Assembly (NCBI GenBank): GCA_964556805.1 | Contig: CAZKXF010000001.1 | Coordinates: 1 to 24,353 of the forward strand | Direction: 5' to 3' | Length of the DNA: 24,353 nucleotides | Source of the DNA: an uncultured Candidatus Saccharibacteria bacterium | GTDB lineage: Bacteria > Patescibacteriota > Minisyncoccia > Phycocordibacterales > UBA918 | Shown here: piece after piece, positions 1 through 24,013 of the stretch | Layout: every line of letters begins with the position of its first letter | Position numbering within the stretch: the first letter of the stretch is position 1 | Made by a program: the position numbers and the translations under genes | Notes under the pieces: model-generated | The model's database searches: none | Told to the model about the DNA's origin: nothing | What the model saw: only the letters and a program-made list of their open reading frames with translations

Positions 1-38
1 TAATGAGTAGGTCGTCGGTTCGAATCCGACAGGTGGCT
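1..38 (+). tRNA. 3' part of a tRNA, truncated by the window start; probably tRNA-Thr
   Basis: Reads as T36-AA, anticodon stem 3' strand TGAGT, variable loop AGGTC, T arm GTCGG-TTCGAAT-CCGAC, acceptor 3' strand AGGTGGC, discriminator T; CCA not encoded. An implied 5' GCC acceptor start, U36 and U73 fit tRNA-Thr. The first two anticodon bases lie outside the window, so identity is inferred. Confidence 0.75.
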
Positions 39-71
39 CTCAGATTTGAAGAGCAGAGAAACACGGGTGGT

Positions 72-2667: not shown

Positions 2668-2676
2668 TGCTATCAT
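2668..2676 (+). promoter_or_regulatory. Putative extended -10 promoter of pheS-pheT
   Basis: TGC-TATCAT ending 7 nt before ATG 2684; no clear -35. Confidence 0.45.
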
Positions 2677-2683
2677 GGCCCGT

Positions 2684-3400
2684 ATGTCCGCCACTACTCC
2701 TGGCCACCTCCACCCAATCTCGCGGATGATCCGCGAGATCAACGGCATTTTTGCCGAGCAGGGATTCGTGTTCGCAGAAGGACCAGAGATGGAAGAGGTA
2801 CGCTACAACTTCGACCTCCTCAACGTACCCCAGGATCATCCTTCCCGCGACATGCAGGACACCTTCTACGTTGCAGGCAAGCCGGACGTGGTGCTCCGGA
2901 CGCACACCTCGCCGGTGCAGGTTCGCTTCATGCTCTCGCATGAACCGCCGATCCGCATGATCTGTCCGGGCAAGGTGTTCCGGAACGAAGCAACCGACGC
3001 GACGCATGAGGCGCAGTTTTTCCAACTCGAAGGACTTGTCGTCGACCGCGATACATCACTTTCGCACCTGAAAGGAACGCTGGAGTATTTTTTCTCGAAG
3101 TTTTTCGGAGGCGAGGTGTCGGTCCGATTTCGTCCGAGCTTCTTTCCCTTTGTGGAACCGGGCGTTGAAGTGGATATGAAAATCGATATGCCGGGCAATA
3201 AGCTCTCGGGTAGGTGGATCGAGATGATGGGTGCCGGTATGGTGCATCCGAACGTGCTTCGCGGCGCGGGGATTGATCCCGACGTCTACCAGGGGTTCGC
3301 CTTCGGCATGGGTATCGAACGGCTGGCGGTCCTCAAGTACGGCATCGACGACATTCGCCTTATGTACTCAGGCGACCTGCGGTTCGTTAACCAATTTTAG
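2684..3400 (+). CDS. pheS: Phenylalanine--tRNA ligase alpha subunit, short form without the N-terminal coiled coil
   Basis: GHLHP, HPSRDMQDTFY, LRTHTSPVQ, GKVFRNE, FRPSFFPFVEP, GFAFGMGIERL. ATG 2684 chosen because ATG 2675 overlaps the putative -10. Confidence 0.97.
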   Translation: MSATTPGHLHPISRMIREINGIFAEQGFVFAEGPEMEEVRYNFDLLNVPQDHPSRDMQDTFYVAGKPDVVLRTHTSPVQVRFMLSHEPPIRMICPGKVFRNEATDATHEAQFFQLEGLVVDRDTSLSHLKGTLEYFFSKFFGGEVSVRFRPSFFPFVEPGVEVDMKIDMPGNKLSGRWIEMMGAGMVHPNVLRGAGIDPDVYQGFAFGMGIERLAVLKYGIDDIRLMYSGDLRFVNQF

Positions 3401-5887: not shown

Positions 5888-7963
5888 ATGCCGAAGAAAG
5901 GGTCGGAAAAAGAGACTAAAAAGAGCTCGTACAGCGCCTCTGCCATTACCGTTCTGGAGGGTCTCGATCCGGTGCGCAAGCGCCCCGGCATGTACATCGG
6001 TACCACCGGTACCGATGGTCTTCACCACCTCATCTGGGAGGTGTTCGATAACTCGCGCGATGAGGCGATGGGCGGCTTTGCCGACCGTGTGGAGGTAGCG
6101 CTCTTGCCCGGCAACCGCGTACGCGTGGTCGACAATGGTCGCGGTATTCCGGTTGACATCCACAAGCAGACGAAGGTCTCTGCGCTTGAGACTATCATGA
6201 CGACGCTGCACGCTGGCGGCAAGTTTGGCGGAGAAGGGTACAAGGTTTCGGGCGGCCTCCATGGCGTGGGCGTCTCCGTGGTGAACGCGCTCTCAACCTA
6301 CGTGCGCGCCGACGTGCATCGCGACGGCGGCCACTACATGCAGGAGTATGCAATCGGCAAGCCAAAGAACAAAGTAAAAAAGCTCGCGAACTCCACGCAG
6401 CAGGGCACCATCATTACGTTTGAGCCGGACATCACAATTTTCAAAGAAATTTCATTCGACTGGAACCGCATCGTTGCGCATCTTCGCCAGCAGGCCTACC
6501 TCGTGAAGAGCATGCACCTTGCGGTGATCGACGCGCGGGAATTCTCCGGAATGCTCGACCTCTCGGACGTCTTCTACCTCGCCGATGAAGACATTGAGGT
6601 GCCGTCGCAGACCTTCTACTTCGAAGGGGGTCTGCGTTCGCTCGTTGCGTTTCAAAATCAGCACCAGAAGCCCATCCACCGGAACATTTTTTACGTGGAA
6701 AAGGAAAATATCGACAGCGCGGTGCTGTCGGTGGAGGTGGCGCTGCAGTACGTCGACGATATCTCGGCGCGCATGACGGCCTTTGCGAACAATATCTACA
6801 ACCCCGAGCACGGTACGCACGTCACGGGTTTCAAAACTGCGCTCACCCGCACGCTCAACAGCTACGCGCGCAAGAACAACCTCATCAAGGAGAAGGACGA
6901 ATCGTTTACCGGTGAAGATGTACTCGAAGGTATCACGGTGGTGATTTCGGTGAAGATGCCGGAGATACAGTTTGAGGGGCAGACGAAGGGGAAGCTCGGA
7001 TCGGTGGAGGCGCGCGGCGCCGTCGAGTCCGTGTTCTCAGAGGCCTTCTCCACTTTCCTCGAGGAGAATCCCGATGATGCTCGCGCTATCATCGGCAAGG
7101 TGGTGATCGCGGTAAAAGCCCGCAAGGCCGCGAAAGCAGCAAAGGACAGCGTGCTCCGCAAGGGTGCGCTCGACGGCATGACGCTTCCGGGCAAGCTTGC
7201 CGACTGCCAGACCAAGAGCGCCGAGGAATCGGAGCTCTTCATCGTAGAGGGAGATTCCGCAGGCGGTTCGGCGAAGATGGGGCGGGATCGCCGTACGCAG
7301 GCCATTCTGCCGCTGCGCGGCAAGATTTTAAACGTCGAGCGTACCCGTATCGACAAGATGCTCGCCTCTGAGCAGATCAAGAATCTGGTGGTGGCACTGG
7401 GCGCCGCGATCGGCGACGTCTTCGATATCTCGAAGCTTCGGTACCACAAGATCATCATCGCCACCGATGCCGATGTCGACGGCGCGCACATTCGCACGCT
7501 CCTTCTCACGCTCTTCTACCGCTACTTTAAGCCGGTGATCGACGATGGCTACCTCTACATCGCCCAGCCACCGCTCTACAAGATTCAGAAAGGCAAGGAG
7601 GTATTCTACGCGTACAACGATGCCGAGAAGGCCTCGATCGTAGGAACAGCAGCGCCAGAAGAGACCGTCGAGGAGACGGCTGCGGAAGACGAGCCCGTTG
7701 CTGAGGGTGGAGAGGAAGAGACTGAGGAGGTGACGGCAAAGAGCGCGAAGGTGCGCATCCAGCGCTACAAGGGGCTCGGTGAGATGAATGCCGAGGAGCT
7801 GTGGGAAACGACGATGAATCCGGCAAACCGAGTGCTCAAGCGCGTGCGCGTCGAGGATGCGCAGGATGCTGACAAGGTCTTCGACATCCTCATGGGCACG
7901 GACGTCGGCAACCGCAAATCCTTCATCCAGTCAAACGCCCACATGGCGAATTTGGATATCTAG
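5888..7963 (+). CDS. gyrB: DNA gyrase subunit B (type IIA topoisomerase B subunit)
   Basis: LEGLDPVRKRPGMYIG, EVFDNSRDE, DNGRGIP, SGGLHGVGVSVVNALS, EGDSAGG, PLRGKILN, TDADVDG, QRYKGLGEMN, C-terminal NLDI. ParE cannot be fully excluded without a tree. Confidence 0.93.
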   Translation: MPKKGSEKETKKSSYSASAITVLEGLDPVRKRPGMYIGTTGTDGLHHLIWEVFDNSRDEAMGGFADRVEVALLPGNRVRVVDNGRGIPVDIHKQTKVSALETIMTTLHAGGKFGGEGYKVSGGLHGVGVSVVNALSTYVRADVHRDGGHYMQEYAIGKPKNKVKKLANSTQQGTIITFEPDITIFKEISFDWNRIVAHLRQQAYLVKSMHLAVIDAREFSGMLDLSDVFYLADEDIEVPSQTFYFEGGLRSLVAFQNQHQKPIHRNIFYVEKENIDSAVLSVEVALQYVDDISARMTAFANNIYNPEHGTHVTGFKTALTRTLNSYARKNNLIKEKDESFTGEDVLEGITVVISVKMPEIQFEGQTKGKLGSVEARGAVESVFSEAFSTFLEENPDDARAIIGKVVIAVKARKAAKAAKDSVLRKGALDGMTLPGKLADCQTKSAEESELFIVEGDSAGGSAKMGRDRRTQAILPLRGKILNVERTRIDKMLASEQIKNLVVALGAAIGDVFDISKLRYHKIIIATDADVDGAHIRTLLLTLFYRYFKPVIDDGYLYIAQPPLYKIQKGKEVFYAYNDAEKASIVGTAAPEETVEETAAEDEPVAEGGEEETEEVTAKSAKVRIQRYKGLGEMNAEELWETTMNPANRVLKRVRVEDAQDADKVFDILMGTDVGNRKSFIQSNAHMANLDI

Positions 7964-16650: not shown

Positions 16651-17901
16651 TTACAATCGCTCAGCCACTTCTTTGGTAAGTTTCTCTGCAAGGATTTCTA
16701 CCGAGAGCTGCGTCGAGCTACCATCTCGCGCCTCGAGCGTTACACTGCCTTCAGCAACTTCCTTGTCGCCGATGACGAGGAAGTAGGGAAGCTTGTCCTT
16801 CTTGGCGTTGCGGATCTTCTTGCCGAGCGACTCGTTGCTAGCGTCGAGCTCGGTGCGGATGTGCGCCGCTCTGAGCTTCGCTTCTACATCCTGTGCGTAG
16901 CTCAGATGTTTTTCCGATACCGGTAGTACCTTCACGTGTACCGGCGAAAGCCAGACGGGGAATGCACCGTTATAGTGCTCGATGAGGAATGCCATGACCC
17001 GCTCGATGGCACCGATCGAGGAGCGGTGTACGACGAATGCGCGTTTCTTAGAACCGTCTTCGCTCACGTAGGTGAGGTCAAATCGTTCCGGCATGCAGAA
17101 ATCGTACTGGACGGTAAAGGCGGTATCTTCCTTGCCGTTAACGTTCTTCATCTGGACATCGATTTTCGGCCCGTAGAATGCTGCTTCGTCCTTCGCCTCC
17201 TCAAAGGGGGATCCGCGGGATACGAGGTGCTTGCGGAGCAGGTCTTCCGCTTTTTCCCATGCCGCATCATTCGTGTAGTACTTCTCTGTATTTGTCCGAT
17301 CGCCAAGCGAGAGACGGAAACGGTAGTGTTCACCGAGTTTCAGCCCCAGTACGCCTGCCACGTACTCGATAAGGTCGAGGGCCGTGCCTACCTCGGCCAC
17401 CGCCTGCTCTTCGGACGCACACACGATGTGGGCGTCCGAGAGGCAGAAGGAGCGGACTCGCTGGAGACCCATGAGCTCGCCAGACTGCTCGTATCGGTAG
17501 AGTTTGGCGATCTCGGCAATACGCATCGGCAGCTCGCGGTAGCTGCGCGGCCGCGATAGAAAGAGTTAGAAGTGGTGCGGACAGGTCATTGGGCGCAACA
17601 TGAATTTTTCCTCGTCAATCTCTATCTGCGCGTACATCGAATCCTTGTAGTGCGGATAGTGGCCCGACTTGACGTAGAGATCGAGCTTAGCGATATCCGG
17701 CGTGCACACATGGAGGTACCCGCGCTTAATCTCTTCATCGATGATGAAACGCTCAAGTTCGCGCCGAATGGTTGCTCCTTTGGGCAGGAAGAGGGGCAGG
17801 CCTTTACCCACGGTATCCGAGAAGGTGAAGAGCTCGAGTTCGCGGCCGAGTCGCTTGTGGTCTCGCTCTTTGAGGTTTTCGTCAGGCACGTTGGTATTCA
17901 T
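16651..17901 (-). CDS. thrS: Threonine--tRNA ligase lacking N-terminal TGS/editing domains; frame interrupted by one TAA at 17566-17568
   Basis: Two same-frame ORFs join as RPMTCPHHF*LFLSRPRSYRELPMRIAE. Motifs RDHKRLG, YRYEQSGEL, RVRSF...DAH, FYGPKID, VHRSSIGAIER and a C-terminal anticodon-binding domain. Whether it is intact in vivo is unresolved. Confidence 0.93.
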
Positions 17902-17920: not shown

Positions 17921-18099
17921 AAATAAAAAACGTCCGAGCAAAAATTCAATCTGCATTGAATTTTTGCTCGGACGATCTTTCGACCGCGGTTCCACCGAGC
18001 TTCCGCGCATACATATGTGCGCGACGCTTGTGCAGAGGTTGGGTGTGCGACACGCTCTCGTCAGAGCCCCCGGGTGGTAGCCGAGGCGATCCCTCCTGT
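17921..18099 (-). ncRNA. T-box riboswitch leader (transcriptional attenuator) of thrS
   Basis: Minus strand: antiterminator GCUCGG-[UGGAACC bulge]-GCGGUC-GAAA-GAUCGU-CCGAGC (18000-17966) overlaps a 20-bp terminator hairpin (17974-17931) followed by UUUUUUAUUU; Stem III-like hairpin CGCGCA..UGCGCG just upstream. Confidence 0.88.
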
Positions 18100-18105
18100 A
18101 GGTCT

Positions 18106-18133
18106 ATCGTACCGGGTAACCGTGTGTTGTCAA
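18106..18133 (-). promoter_or_regulatory. Promoter of the T-box-thrS transcript
   Basis: Minus strand TTGACA(18133-18128)-N16-TACGAT(18111-18106), just downstream of the dnaE stop. Confidence 0.65.
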
Positions 18134-18147
18134 ACCCACTCCGTTTC

Positions 18148-21100
18148 TTATAGCAGCGATTTCACCGCCTCGGCAACAATCGACGGCTGGCCGTTGCGGA
18201 AGGAGAGCCTGCCTTTGACGGCAATGCAGCTCTGGGGCACGAGGATGTCATGCTTCTGTTTGTAGAGGTCGGTAAAGACCACCATCTCAATCGAGTGCTG
18301 CCAGTCGGCGAGGCGGATAAACGCCATTTTATCTCCTTTTTTCGTGAGAATCTCCTTAACCTCCTCGATGAGCCCCGAGGTTTTCACCGGAATGCCTTCG
18401 CGCTCTTCGGTGATGATCACGGAAAGCGGAGCATACTTTTTCATTGCCTCCCGGCAGCGGTCGAGCGGATGGCCGGAGACGAAGATACCGAGCAGCTCTT
18501 TTTCCCACAGGAGCTTCTGCTCGGGCGAAGCAGGTGCTGCCGGGGCGAGTACCAGGTCTGCCTCAGTGTGTGCAGAGAGCGTTGCGAAGAGCGAATCGTG
18601 GCCCGAAACAAGCGAGGCAGCGTGTTCCTTGCTGTACTCAAGGAGCTTGTCGATGTTGGCGAGCATAGCGCCGCGCTCGGCGAAGCGGTCGAGAGCGCCG
18701 GCCATGATGAGCGCTTCAAGCGATTTCTTGTTGAGGTTGCGATTCTGCACACGCCGAAGAAAGTCCGCAAGCGACGCGTACGGCCCGTTCGCTTTACGCT
18801 CCTCGATAATTGCCTCCGTGATGCCGGCGCCGAAGTTTTTAATCGTCGTCAACCCGAAGCGGATCTCGCGCTTCTGCGCATCTGGGTGTGGTACCACCGA
18901 AAAGTCGGCGAAGCTCTCGTTGATATCCGGCGGCAGTACGTCGATCCCCATGCGCGTGCATTCGTGAATGATTTCTGAAATCTTTTCAATGTCGCCGGAG
19001 TCTGCGGTGAGAACGGCAGACATGTAGGCAACAGGAAAGTTTGCCTTCATGTAGGCTGTCTGGTAGGCGACGCGGCCGTAGCTTGCGGCGTGCGCCTTGT
19101 TGAACCCGTAGGCAGCAAACGGCTCAATGAGCTTCCAGAGCTTTTCGGCGACGGTGCGTGAGAGCTTCCCGTACTCCACAAAGCCGTTGAGCAGCTTCTC
19201 GCGCTCGGCCTCCATCACCTTTGGAATCTGTTTGCCCATGGCCTTGCGGAGCATGTCTGCCTCGAGCCAGGAGTAGCCGGCGAGCTCGCGGGCGATCATG
19301 AGCACGTCGTCCTGGTAGGTCACCACGCCGTAGGAGCGGTCGAGGATTTTCTTGAGACGCGGGTCGATGTAGGTGATACGAGCCGGATTGTGCTTGCGCT
19401 CGATGTACTGCGGAATCGATTCCATGGGCCCTGGGCGGTAGAGGGCGACCATGGCGTTGATGTCGTGGATAGAGGAGGGCTGGAGGTCTTTGAGAAAGCG
19501 GGTCATACCTGAACCGTTCAATTGAAAGAGCCCCATGGTTTCGCCGCGCGCAAGAATTTCAAAGGTCTTCTCATCGTCGAGCGGAACGTTCTCGATGTCG
19601 ATCTCGATGCCGTGAATCTTGCGCACGCGCTTGACCGCATCGGCAAGGATAGAGAGGTTCTTGATGCCGAGGAAATCGAACTTCAGGAGCCCCACGCCGT
19701 CTTCGCCCACCGCGTGCATGTCGTACTGCGTAATCATTTTGCCGCCGTCGCCTTTTGCTTTTGGGTCCGGTTGCAGGGGTACAAAGTTCACCAGCGGTGC
19801 CGGCGCAATCACAACGCCCGCGGCGTGCACGCCGACGTGCCGCACGCGCCCCTCTATTTTCTTGGCAAGGTCGATGACTTCTCGCGTCTCCGGGTCTTTC
19901 TTGTAGAGCTCCTTGAGCTCTGGCTCGATTTCCATTGCACGCTCGATGGTCATGGGAAAGCCCTGCGAGCCCATGGGGATGAGCTTGGCGATTCGGTCGC
20001 CGGTGGCGTACGGGTAATTGAGCGCGCGAGCCACGTCGCGTACCACGGCGCGCGCGAGCATTTTTCCGAACGTGCCGATCTGCGCCACCTTGTCTTCGCC
20101 GTACTTCTGCTTGGCGTACTCGATGATCTCGTCGCGCCGGTTGTCGGCATAGTCCATATCGATATCCGGTGCTGACGGCCGCTCGGGATTGAGGAAGCGC
20201 TCAAAGGGAAGCTTGTACTCGATCGGGTTTACGTTCGTGATGCCAAGTACGTAGGTGGTGAGAGAACCCGCGACTGAGCCGCGGATGGTGGTGAGAATCT
20301 TCCGCTCTCTCGCTTCGCGTAAGAGGTCGCCCACCACGAGGAAGTACTTTGCGTACCCTTTCATCTTGATGATGTCGAGTTCGTAGGCAAGGCGCTCCTT
20401 GATCACCGCGTCCTCAGGGTCAAGCCCGCGCCATCGTATGCCCGCGTAGGCGAGGTGCGCGAGCTCCTCGTCGGGCTCGCGCCCGCTCTCGATCCGATAG
20501 TCGGGAAAGTACCAGGTGCCAATCTCGATTTCGGCTGTACACTGCTCTGCTATTTTTTGCGTGTTCTCGAGCGCTTCGGGACTGTCCTTGAAGTACGCTG
20601 CTGCCTGTTCTTGCGAAATGAAGGAGAAGTCTTCTTCGCGCTCGTCAAAATCGCTCGTGGTCTCTACCGTGCCGCCGGTCTGGATCTTTACCATGGTTTC
20701 CCGCGCGAGCCGGTCGTCGGGCGTAATGTAGTAGACGTCGTGTGCGGCAACGAGCGGCGTTGCGGTATCGGCGGCGAGCATTCGAATTTTTTCTTGGAGC
20801 TCCATGTGGCCGGGAATCTCGGGATGGTGCGAGATCTCGAGGTAGCAGTCTGCGCCGAAGATGCTCTTGTACCAGGAGAGGAGTTCGTGGGCACGCGACC
20901 GGTCGCCGGCCTTAAGGGCTTGTACCGGTTCTCCGGCAAAGGAGGGAATGATGCAGAGCAGATTTTCTCTGTGCTCTTCTATGAGGGCGCGATCGAGCCG
21001 CGGGCGGTAGTAGAAACCGTGGACGTACGATTCGGTAACGAGCGTAATGAGTACCTTGTAGCCGGCGGTGTTCTTTGCAAGCAGTACGACGCGGGCGCGC

Positions 21101-23107: not shown

Positions 23108-24013
23108 ATGGCAAATCGGCACCTCTCACGAAGCATCGTTCTTCAATCCCTCTTTGAGTGGGACATTCAGTCGTTGGAAAAAAATGCCGTCCAGAGCGTG
23201 CTCGAGCGAAACATCGATGAGTTTGCGCCGAACCGATCGGACCTCCCCTTCATGGAGCGCCTCCTCGACGGCGTTCTGCAAAAGCAGAAAGAGCTCGACC
23301 TCGTGATCGAGAAGGCGGCTCCCGAGTGGCCGCTCGACCGCATTTCTCCGGTCGACCGTAACATTCTCCGCCTCGGGCTCTACGAGCTCCTCTTTGCCGA
23401 TCGCAGCGAGGTGCCGGCAAAGGTTGCCATCAACGAGGCGATCGAGCTCGCCAAGCAGTTTGGCGGCGAGAACTCAAGCCGATTCATAAACGGCGTGCTC
23501 GGCGCCGTGTACAAAGAGATCGGCGAGCCGGGCAAGAGCGAGAGCTCGAAGCGCAAACGGAAAGACGTGCCGTACGAGCAGATGCCGATTGAACACCTCG
23601 TGGGCGCTGTGGTGTACGCCGAAGAGGGCGGCGATCTCTACCTCGCGCTCGTCCATGACATCTTTGGCCACTGGACCCTCTCCAAGGGCGGCGTCGAAGA
23701 GGGCGAAGACCTAGCCGATGCAGTGGTTGGTGAAATCAAAGATGAGCTCGGTCTCTCGGTTGTCGTTGAAGCGAAACTTGGTGAAAACGAGTATGTAGCT
23801 TCTGATCCTGAGAAAGGAAAGAAGCGTAAGCATGTGACCTACTTCCTCGCCCGTACCGAGTACACTGAGCTCGTGCTTGAAAAGAAAGGGGGCCTCGACG
23901 ATGCACAGTGGTTTAAAATATCGAAGATCCTCGAACTCAATTTCTATGAGGACATTCTCCCTATTGTCACGAAGGCCGTGACCATGCTTGTCGGAAAGGG
24001 AAGAACGTCGTAG
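23108..24013 (+). CDS. nusB: Transcription antitermination factor NusB fused to a C-terminal NUDIX-fold domain
   Basis: Residues 1-140: RHLSRSIVLQSLFEWD, DRNILRLGLYEL, AINEAIELAKQFG, RFINGVLG. Residues about 161-301: NUDIX-like strands and box GGVEEGEDLADAVVGEIKDELGL. Confidence 0.9.
   Translation: MANRHLSRSIVLQSLFEWDIQSLEKNAVQSVLERNIDEFAPNRSDLPFMERLLDGVLQKQKELDLVIEKAAPEWPLDRISPVDRNILRLGLYELLFADRSEVPAKVAINEAIELAKQFGGENSSRFINGVLGAVYKEIGEPGKSESSKRKRKDVPYEQMPIEHLVGAVVYAEEGGDLYLALVHDIFGHWTLSKGGVEEGEDLADAVVGEIKDELGLSVVVEAKLGENEYVASDPEKGKKRKHVTYFLARTEYTELVLEKKGGLDDAQWFKISKILELNFYEDILPIVTKAVTMLVGKGRTS

Follow-up and report, generated by a model that had tools for sequence, protein, structure and literature searches.

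We predict that thrS, the threonyl-tRNA synthetase gene of an uncultured member of the Patescibacteria, lies behind a conserved, atypical and minimal T-box that very probably senses tRNA-Thr and attenuates thrS transcription. The leader runs from about 18099 to 17921 on the minus strand (about 175 nt) of the window, the whole stretch of 24,353 nucleotides that was analysed. The assembly has 556,590 bases in 110 contigs, is 75% complete and has a GC content of 57%. The original prediction for this DNA placed it in a probable CPR genome, and the genome is indeed a Patescibacteria/Parcubacteria-type MAG whose nearest relatives are all CPR MAGs. It also read the region ahead of thrS as a T-box. 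This reading is supported by the hallmarks of the discriminator domain, a Thr specifier, U73 in tRNA-Thr and conservation of the element before thrS. The folds, conservation, covariation, codon, U73 match, promoter and gene described below are shown by the sequence analysis.

The expression platform

The discriminator hallmarks of T-boxes have been defined in a review as a 7-nt UGGN-ACC bulge, the helices A1 and A2, a G.U pair at the end of A2, RRRxG and AA sequences around Stem III, and a competing terminator (PMC7583486). The leader contains the following parts on the thrS-proximal side:

18001-18029, minus strand: Stem III and its purine flanks (AAGCG at 18029-18025, a 7-bp hairpin at 18024-18003 and AA at 18002-18001)
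17966-18000, minus strand: antiterminator, composed of A1, the T-box bulge and A2 (Rfam alignment and folds)
18000-17995, minus strand: 5' strand of A1, GCUCGG, which pairs with the 3' strand CCGAGC at 17971-17966
17994-17988, minus strand: T-box bulge UGGAACC, 7 nt, between A1 and A2
17987-17972, minus strand: A2, GCGGUC-GAAA-GAUCGU, 6 bp, with a terminal G.U pair (G17987.U17972)
17921-17974, minus strand: intrinsic terminator, with a hairpin at 17974-17931 of 20 perfect bp and a 4-nt loop (pattern scan)

The antiterminator anatomy given in the original prediction (A1, UGGAACC and an A2 helix capped by GAAA, on the minus strand) is all in the sequence at 17966-18000. The same is true of the perfect 20-bp terminator at 17974-17931, which was said to share the 3' strand of the antiterminator and to end in a U tract. 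Directly after the terminator hairpin, at 17930-17921 of the minus strand, is UUUUUUAUUU, which contains a run of six U. Nine nucleotides of the 3' side of the antiterminator are also used by the 5' strand of the terminator, so the two structures are mutually exclusive, as they are in T-boxes. The 7-nt bulge of the UGGN plus ACC type sits between A1 and A2 in the T-box manner; Stem III has the expected RRRxG on its 5' side (AAGCG) and AA on its 3' side, and the last pair of A2 is the G.U pair of T-boxes.

Folded separately, the terminator reaches -31.4 kcal/mol and the antiterminator -15.6 kcal/mol, and the fold of the full leader has a z-score of -5.5 relative to shuffles. When the 3' strand of the terminator is blocked, the minimum-energy fold consists of the P1-P4 junction described below, Stem III, A1 and A2. 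The thrS ATG (17901-17899) follows the U-rich tract at a distance of 19 nt and the run of six U at 23 nt; the close spacing proposed earlier stands, with these distances in place of the 20 nt given. The switch had been called complete at 17921-18000. That interval holds the expression platform, and the full element extends over about 18099-17921, with a promoter at 18133-18106.

A comparison with the Rfam T-box family (RF00230), suggested as a check on the original prediction, recovered one half of the element. In a local search, RF00230 positions 159-216 align to 17968-18029 with 27.5 bits (E = 2.6e-4), a stretch that comprises Stem III and the antiterminator and is thus the discriminator half only. 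The alignment in the window includes nothing 5' of Stem III and no part of Stem I, and at the gathering threshold (93 bits for RF00230) there is no Rfam match in the window or in the whole genome. We consider the resemblance to a T-box to be greater than chance because of the Rfam match and because the same arrangement, with compensatory changes, precedes thrS in dozens of relatives.

A compact decoding module

Upstream of Stem III, the leader and its flank contain a promoter and four short helices:

18106-18133, minus strand: sigma-70-like promoter (TTGACA at 18133-18128, a 16-nt spacer and TACGAT at 18111-18106)
18092-18098, minus strand: 5' strand of P1, CAGGAGG (the register of the family is GAGG; here C-A offers one more possible pair)
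18087-18091, minus strand: junction J1/2, GAUCG (family consensus GAUUG)
18068-18086, minus strand: P2, the specifier hairpin, CCUCGG / loop CUACCAC / CCGGGG, with 6 bp and a 7-nt terminal loop (folds)
18054-18067, minus strand: P3, a variable hairpin, GCUCU-GACG-AGAGC (folds)
18043-18053, minus strand: P4, a variable hairpin, GUGU-CGC-ACAC (folds)
18039-18042, minus strand: junction J4/1, CCAA (family consensus CUAA)
18033-18038, minus strand: 3' strand of P1, CCUCUG, which pairs with the 5' strand (the folds give GGAGG/CCUCU, 18096-18092 with 18038-18034)

The predicted transcript start, at about 18099, is right at P1, and in the folds the first 67 nt of the leader form four helices, P1-P4, around one junction. 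The loop of P2 contains the specifier ACC (18078-18076, minus strand) followed by the purine A at 18075. This is a Thr codon plus a purine ahead of thrS, the arrangement expected of a T-box. A long Stem I does not fit here, because only 67 nt separate the predicted start from the linker and all of them are filled by P1-P4. No K-turn, Specifier Loop with an S-turn, AG bulge or distal T-loop elbow platform is recognisable in the leader, which sets it outside the class I architecture. Among the arms after the specifier hairpin we recognise no Stem II S-turn (a 5-purine string), IIA/B pseudoknot or F-box; across relatives these arms are hairpins of 3-12 bp without a conserved internal loop or sequence.

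Two other pairings were considered and dropped. A P1 register of AGAUU/AAUCU does not accommodate the variants CGGA/UCCG, CAGG/CCUG and UAGA/UCUA, which fit the CAGA/UCUG register only. A conserved decoy, in which the specifier loop pairs with GGUGG in the T-box, would use the CCACC found in the window, a sequence that is missing in most relatives.

The match to tRNA-Thr

The only tRNA-Thr in the assembly (ARAGORN, 75%-complete genome) has the anticodon UGU and is encoded at positions 5959-6034 of another contig, C30. It has U73 and an encoded CCA, so the UGGA of the bulge can pair with its UCCA. The bulge base is complementary to the tRNA discriminator base (UGGA to U73), as in other T-boxes. 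The original prediction deduced U73 from UGGA. The tRNA-Thr(UGU) of this genome has it, as do 10/10 tRNA-Thr genes (UGU, GGU and CGU) read from six relatives (G013, G023, G024, G031, G062 and G399). U34 of tRNA-Thr(UGU) would face the C of the specifier ACC. The GGU isoacceptor, a perfect fit to ACC, was seen in relatives only.

The start of the window also contains part of a tRNA gene:

1-39, plus strand: 3' fragment of tRNA-Thr, positions 36-73 and one further base, with U36 and U73, cut by the contig end

This tRNA end had been described correctly as having U73 and U36 and as Thr-like. It is only a contig-end fragment, and the intact gene is on C30: window positions 1-39 are identical at 39/39 nt to C30:5994-6032, inside the complete tRNA-Thr(UGU), and ARAGORN finds no complete tRNA in the window. 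Positions 31-50 of the window, read as the reverse complement, exactly match 20 nt across the 5' flank and the acceptor start of the C30 tRNA-Thr gene (C30:5946-6034). The inverted copy may be a fold-back or an assembly join at the contig end. Positions 72-101 repeat positions 1-30 and are followed by a different acceptor-like strand.

A single leader departs from the usual codon and bulge. In a Nomurabacteria-labelled MAG (G399, locus L047:2264-2389), the specifier is ACG and the bulge is UGGG. The CGU, GGU and UGU tRNA-Thr of this genome all have U73, so the last G of UGGG would form a G.U pair, and the case is consistent with pairing between the bulge and U73. In G023 (contig C3, locus L172, about 2402-2460), a gene resembling tRNA-Thr(GGU) is not called by ARAGORN and seems to be interrupted directly behind the anticodon loop; the interruption may be an intron.

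Conservation and covariation in relatives

In a DNA search of 60 related genomes, the expression platform was matched in 27/36 genomes of the same family. A thrS homologue is downstream in 25/25 of the loci examined, and thrS also follows the element at five order-level loci (L175, L177, L178, L181 and L183). We built a covariance model, R1, from 24 leaders. R1 covers P2, A1 and A2 only; pairing in P1, Stem III and the terminator lies outside it and was counted by script. Covariation was assessed on an alignment of 50 R1 matches, and the script counts refer to 47 leaders.

Pairs are strongly maintained in the 50-sequence alignment, in which 96.7% of the paired cells can pair, vs 84.0% in column shuffles and 33-42% when the partners are slid. 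Changes on both sides occur in 9/16 of the modelled pairs, including 5/6 in P2 and 4/6 in A1. The terminal pair of A2 is G.U in 33/50 sequences and G-C in 14/50. P1 has 4 bp in the 47 relatives, and three of its four positions have changes on both sides: position 1 is C-G, U-A or G-C, and positions 2 and 4 are A-U or G-C. The pairs of Stem III also covary; an RRRxG-type motif precedes this stem in about 40/47 relatives, and AA stands after it, before A1, in 47/47. RNAalifold run on a MAFFT alignment missed P1 and Stem III.

The specifier is ACCA in 46/47 relatives and ACGA, also a Thr codon, in the remaining one; the P2 loop reads NNACCAN in 46/47, and the bulge is UGGAACC in 46/47. J1/2 is GAUUG in 41/47, and J4/1 is CUAA in 41/47 and CCAA in 4. 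The segment from P2 to J4/1 forms two hairpins in 34/46 relatives and one in 12/46, and neither its sequence nor its length is conserved. Of the 47 relatives, 45 have a terminator hairpin followed by a U run, with medians of 19 bp and -30 kcal/mol for the hairpin, and the distal sequences are unrelated. In 42/47, a TTGACA-16/17-TAnnAT promoter stands ahead of the element, with 5-9 nt between its end and the element. The shared plan thus begins with the promoter, CAGA, GAUUG, a 6-bp hairpin with the loop NNACCAN, one or two variable hairpins, CUAA and UCUG. It continues with a short linker ending in AAGYG, Stem III and then GAAGCUCGG-UGGAACC-GCG.

The regulated gene

The gene after the leader was identified as thrS in the original prediction, and its domains and relatives agree with this:

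16651-17901, minus strand: thrS, the regulated gene, 416 codons, a short form with a class II core and an HGTP anticodon-binding domain

The TGS and editing domains are absent from this thrS. It is most closely related to threonyl-tRNA synthetases from MAGs of Patescibacteria. Short-form thrS occurs widely in Patescibacteria, with 325 confirmed loci.

Codon 112 of the gene is an in-frame TAA (17568-17566). The switch could, on this account, be a relic that precedes a thrS pseudogene, an explanation that we regard as unlikely. On its side may also be counted that a search of the assembled 75% of the genome gave no second thrS, and that genomes of the same genus use a different, long-form thrS. 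However, threonyl-tRNA synthetase is essential, and the thrS frame is otherwise intact, with 79% identity over 418 aa to its closest uninterrupted relative (G023, locus L142, from another genus). Of 80 relatives, 49 encode E in place of the stop, 28 Q and 3 R, with GAA, GAG, CAA or CAG codons, and TAA is one base from GAA or CAA. Read support is also thin. For the probable source sample, Logan contigs reach 2.5-5x, none spans 17497-17805, and they break across the TAA site. A base error or minor variant is therefore plausible, and a recent mutation is a further candidate. All conserved features of the leader are intact, and it scores 93 bits on R1. We favor a working T-box over a relic.

The four genomes of the same genus have no such T-box element. 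They encode a long-form thrS of 588-659 aa (loci L143-L145 in G001, G002 and G004) that is 45-47% identical to the one studied here and lacks a T-box. This long-form gene adjoins dnaE in G001 and G004, as thrS does in this window, and is on a different contig from dnaE in G002. DnaE is 80-82% identical to that of the same-genus genomes. Together, these comparisons suggest that a cassette of T-box and thrS was replaced or exchanged.

In G023, the DnaE homologue aligns as two separate segments inside one open frame of 1193 aa (G023:C1:7052-10369), which suggests that it carries an insertion, possibly an intein. In the window, a single frame of 301 aa at 23108-24013 combines a NusB domain and a NUDIX domain, and pheS at 2675-3400 is short (241 aa) and comprises the catalytic core only.

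Distribution and related T-boxes in Patescibacteria

A survey of leaders across Patescibacteria, proposed with the original prediction, was carried out with R1. The genome studied here has one match (93 bits) and no second T-box (R1 at E <= 1 and a motif scan). R1 matches 88/100 genomes of the same family. Among genomes of other families in the order it matches 27/149 (a sample that leaves out G000 and G009), and 17 of these matches are full-length, with at least 34 bits. In a phylum sample of 150 genomes, made up of other classes and six genomes of the same class (one of them of the same order), there are matches in 21 genomes, mostly weaker and to the discriminator half. Eight of the 11 phylum-sample loci inspected are before thrS, with a UGGA discriminator domain as here. 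Elsewhere in Patescibacteria, a T-box is present at 7 of the best 80 short-form thrS loci, so its distribution is patchy.

Five thrS leaders from other classes (L186, L187, L188, L192 and L195) share the UGGA discriminator domain with the leader studied here, whereas they align over the full length of RF00230, with 59-68 bits, and have a specifier region of the AGUA...GAA type. Their form seems closer to that of canonical T-boxes. Because they fit the whole of RF00230 and yet score below its cut-off of 93, T-box control of thrS seems to be broad in the phylum and unannotated.

These leaders demonstrate that longer forms exist in the phylum, and the leader studied here comes directly after dnaE (stop at 18148, P1 start at 18098). 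Both observations could fit a canonical T-box with a long Stem I located farther upstream, within the last part of dnaE, and with the small junction as only part of its decoding domain. We consider this very unlikely. A strong promoter stands between dnaE and P1, and its distance is kept in 42/47 relatives; many relatives have another upstream gene and unrelated upstream sequence. In addition, the Rfam alignment stops at Stem III, and the conserved ACC-A is in the P2 loop. The compact module from P1 to P4 remains the preferred decoding domain of the predicted T-box.

A second T-box precedes aspS in many of the family's genomes (L146-L153, for example G007:C15:11769-11889 and G024:C1:131401-131472). 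It has a UGGC bulge, which fits G73, and GAC-A in a hairpin loop, and it scores 36-55 bits on RF00230. The aspS and thrS types both present the specifier in a hairpin loop, while the aspS type has a different decoding region. The aspS gene of the genome studied here (on contig C7) has no leader and abuts the upstream gene. It is highly improbable that the leader senses no tRNA and is a dnaE terminator or protein-controlled attenuator with UGGAACC by chance: the terminator would also end read-through transcripts of dnaE and the element is below the Rfam cut-off, but the match takes in Stem III with its two purine flanks as well as A1, the bulge, A2 and the G.U pair, the element is conserved only before thrS and always has a codon for Thr and a bulge base suited to U73, and its sister before aspS has GAC and UGGC instead.

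Comparison with known T-box classes

The predicted thrS T-box has much in common with class I T-boxes (RF00230, such as those of Bacillus subtilis thrS, tyrS and glyQS). It shares with them the discriminator domain, a mutually exclusive terminator, a specifier followed by a purine, control of a synthetase gene and a match between the bulge base and the tRNA discriminator. A Stem II domain is absent, as it is from B. subtilis glyQS. Unlike class I, it is without a long Stem I, a K-turn, an internal Specifier Loop with an S-turn, an AG bulge and a distal elbow platform. The codon is instead presented by the 7-nt loop at the tip of a hairpin with 6 bp, and this hairpin is one of the arms that meet in a four-way junction; the whole switch comprises only about 175 nt.

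The ileS T-boxes of Actinobacteria (Mycobacterium and Nocardia) have an ultrashort Stem I (Sherwood et al. 2015), and in N. farcinica the codon occupies nucleotides 16-18 of a 29-nt Stem I (PMC7583486). These forms are translational and hide the Shine-Dalgarno sequence, and they depend on Stem II's S-turn as well as on the IIA/B pseudoknot (PMC7583486). The thrS leader resembles them in its short hairpin without an elbow platform, in a codon near the tip and in neighboring helices that abut flush. It differs in its output, which is a terminator whose U tract lies 19-23 nt ahead of the ATG and not a platform that hides a Shine-Dalgarno sequence, and in that an S-turn, pseudoknot and F-box are not recognisable. 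Its hairpin is also enclosed by P1 and two short variable hairpins, its amino acid is Thr, and it belongs to another phylum.

Proposed mechanism

We propose that transcription starts at about 18099 and that the first 67 nt would fold as the four-way junction, with ACC and A displayed in the 7-nt loop of the second arm. The anticodon loop of tRNA-Thr would pair with this P2 loop. If the tRNA is uncharged, its 3' UCCA would pair with UGGA in the bulge and stack on the antiterminator. The weak antiterminator (-15.6 kcal/mol), once bound by UCCA, would resist replacement by the terminator (-31 kcal/mol), which would lead to readthrough into thrS. With a charged tRNA, or with none, the terminator would form, as it does in the default fold, and transcription would stop at about 17925-17930. 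We predict tRNA binding, sensing of charge and readthrough from the canonical discriminator domain and the established behavior of T-boxes (PMC7583486; PMC7778990).

According to a review, transcriptional T-boxes generally need a platform that binds the tRNA elbow, and forms with a truncated Stem I need Stem II (PMC7583486). Binding of tRNA could be weak here, since neither an elbow platform nor Stem II is recognisable. We speculate that the junction nucleotides GAUUG and CUAA support the codon-anticodon helix. We give roughly even chances to a stronger version of this model. In it, two tRNA contacts suffice, one by kissing of the anticodon loop and the 7-nt loop and one between NCCA and the bulge; GAUUG and CUAA replace the S-turn of Stem II, and the element is the standard, previously undescribed control of thrS in a large branch of the Patescibacteria.

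Significance

Most documented T-boxes come from Firmicutes; fewer are known from Actinobacteria, Chloroflexi, Deinococcus-Thermus and a small number of Proteobacteria (PMC2494555). Full-text literature searches found no papers that link T-boxes to CPR/Patescibacteria. The predicted thrS T-box would act through a terminator and, at the same time, have a smaller decoding module than any that has been characterised. It provides a test of the view that co-transcriptional T-boxes need the elbow platform for fast binding (PMC7583486). If the two-contact form is true, it would overturn the elbow-platform rule and represent the smallest natural tRNA-sensing scaffold. The element is short (about 175 nt) and has many natural variants behind it. 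Annotation at the Rfam cut-off appears to miss a whole branch of the T-box family. CPR/Patescibacteria have very few regulators, so a protein-free sensor on thrS would be one of the few circuits in these bacteria that can be read from the genome.
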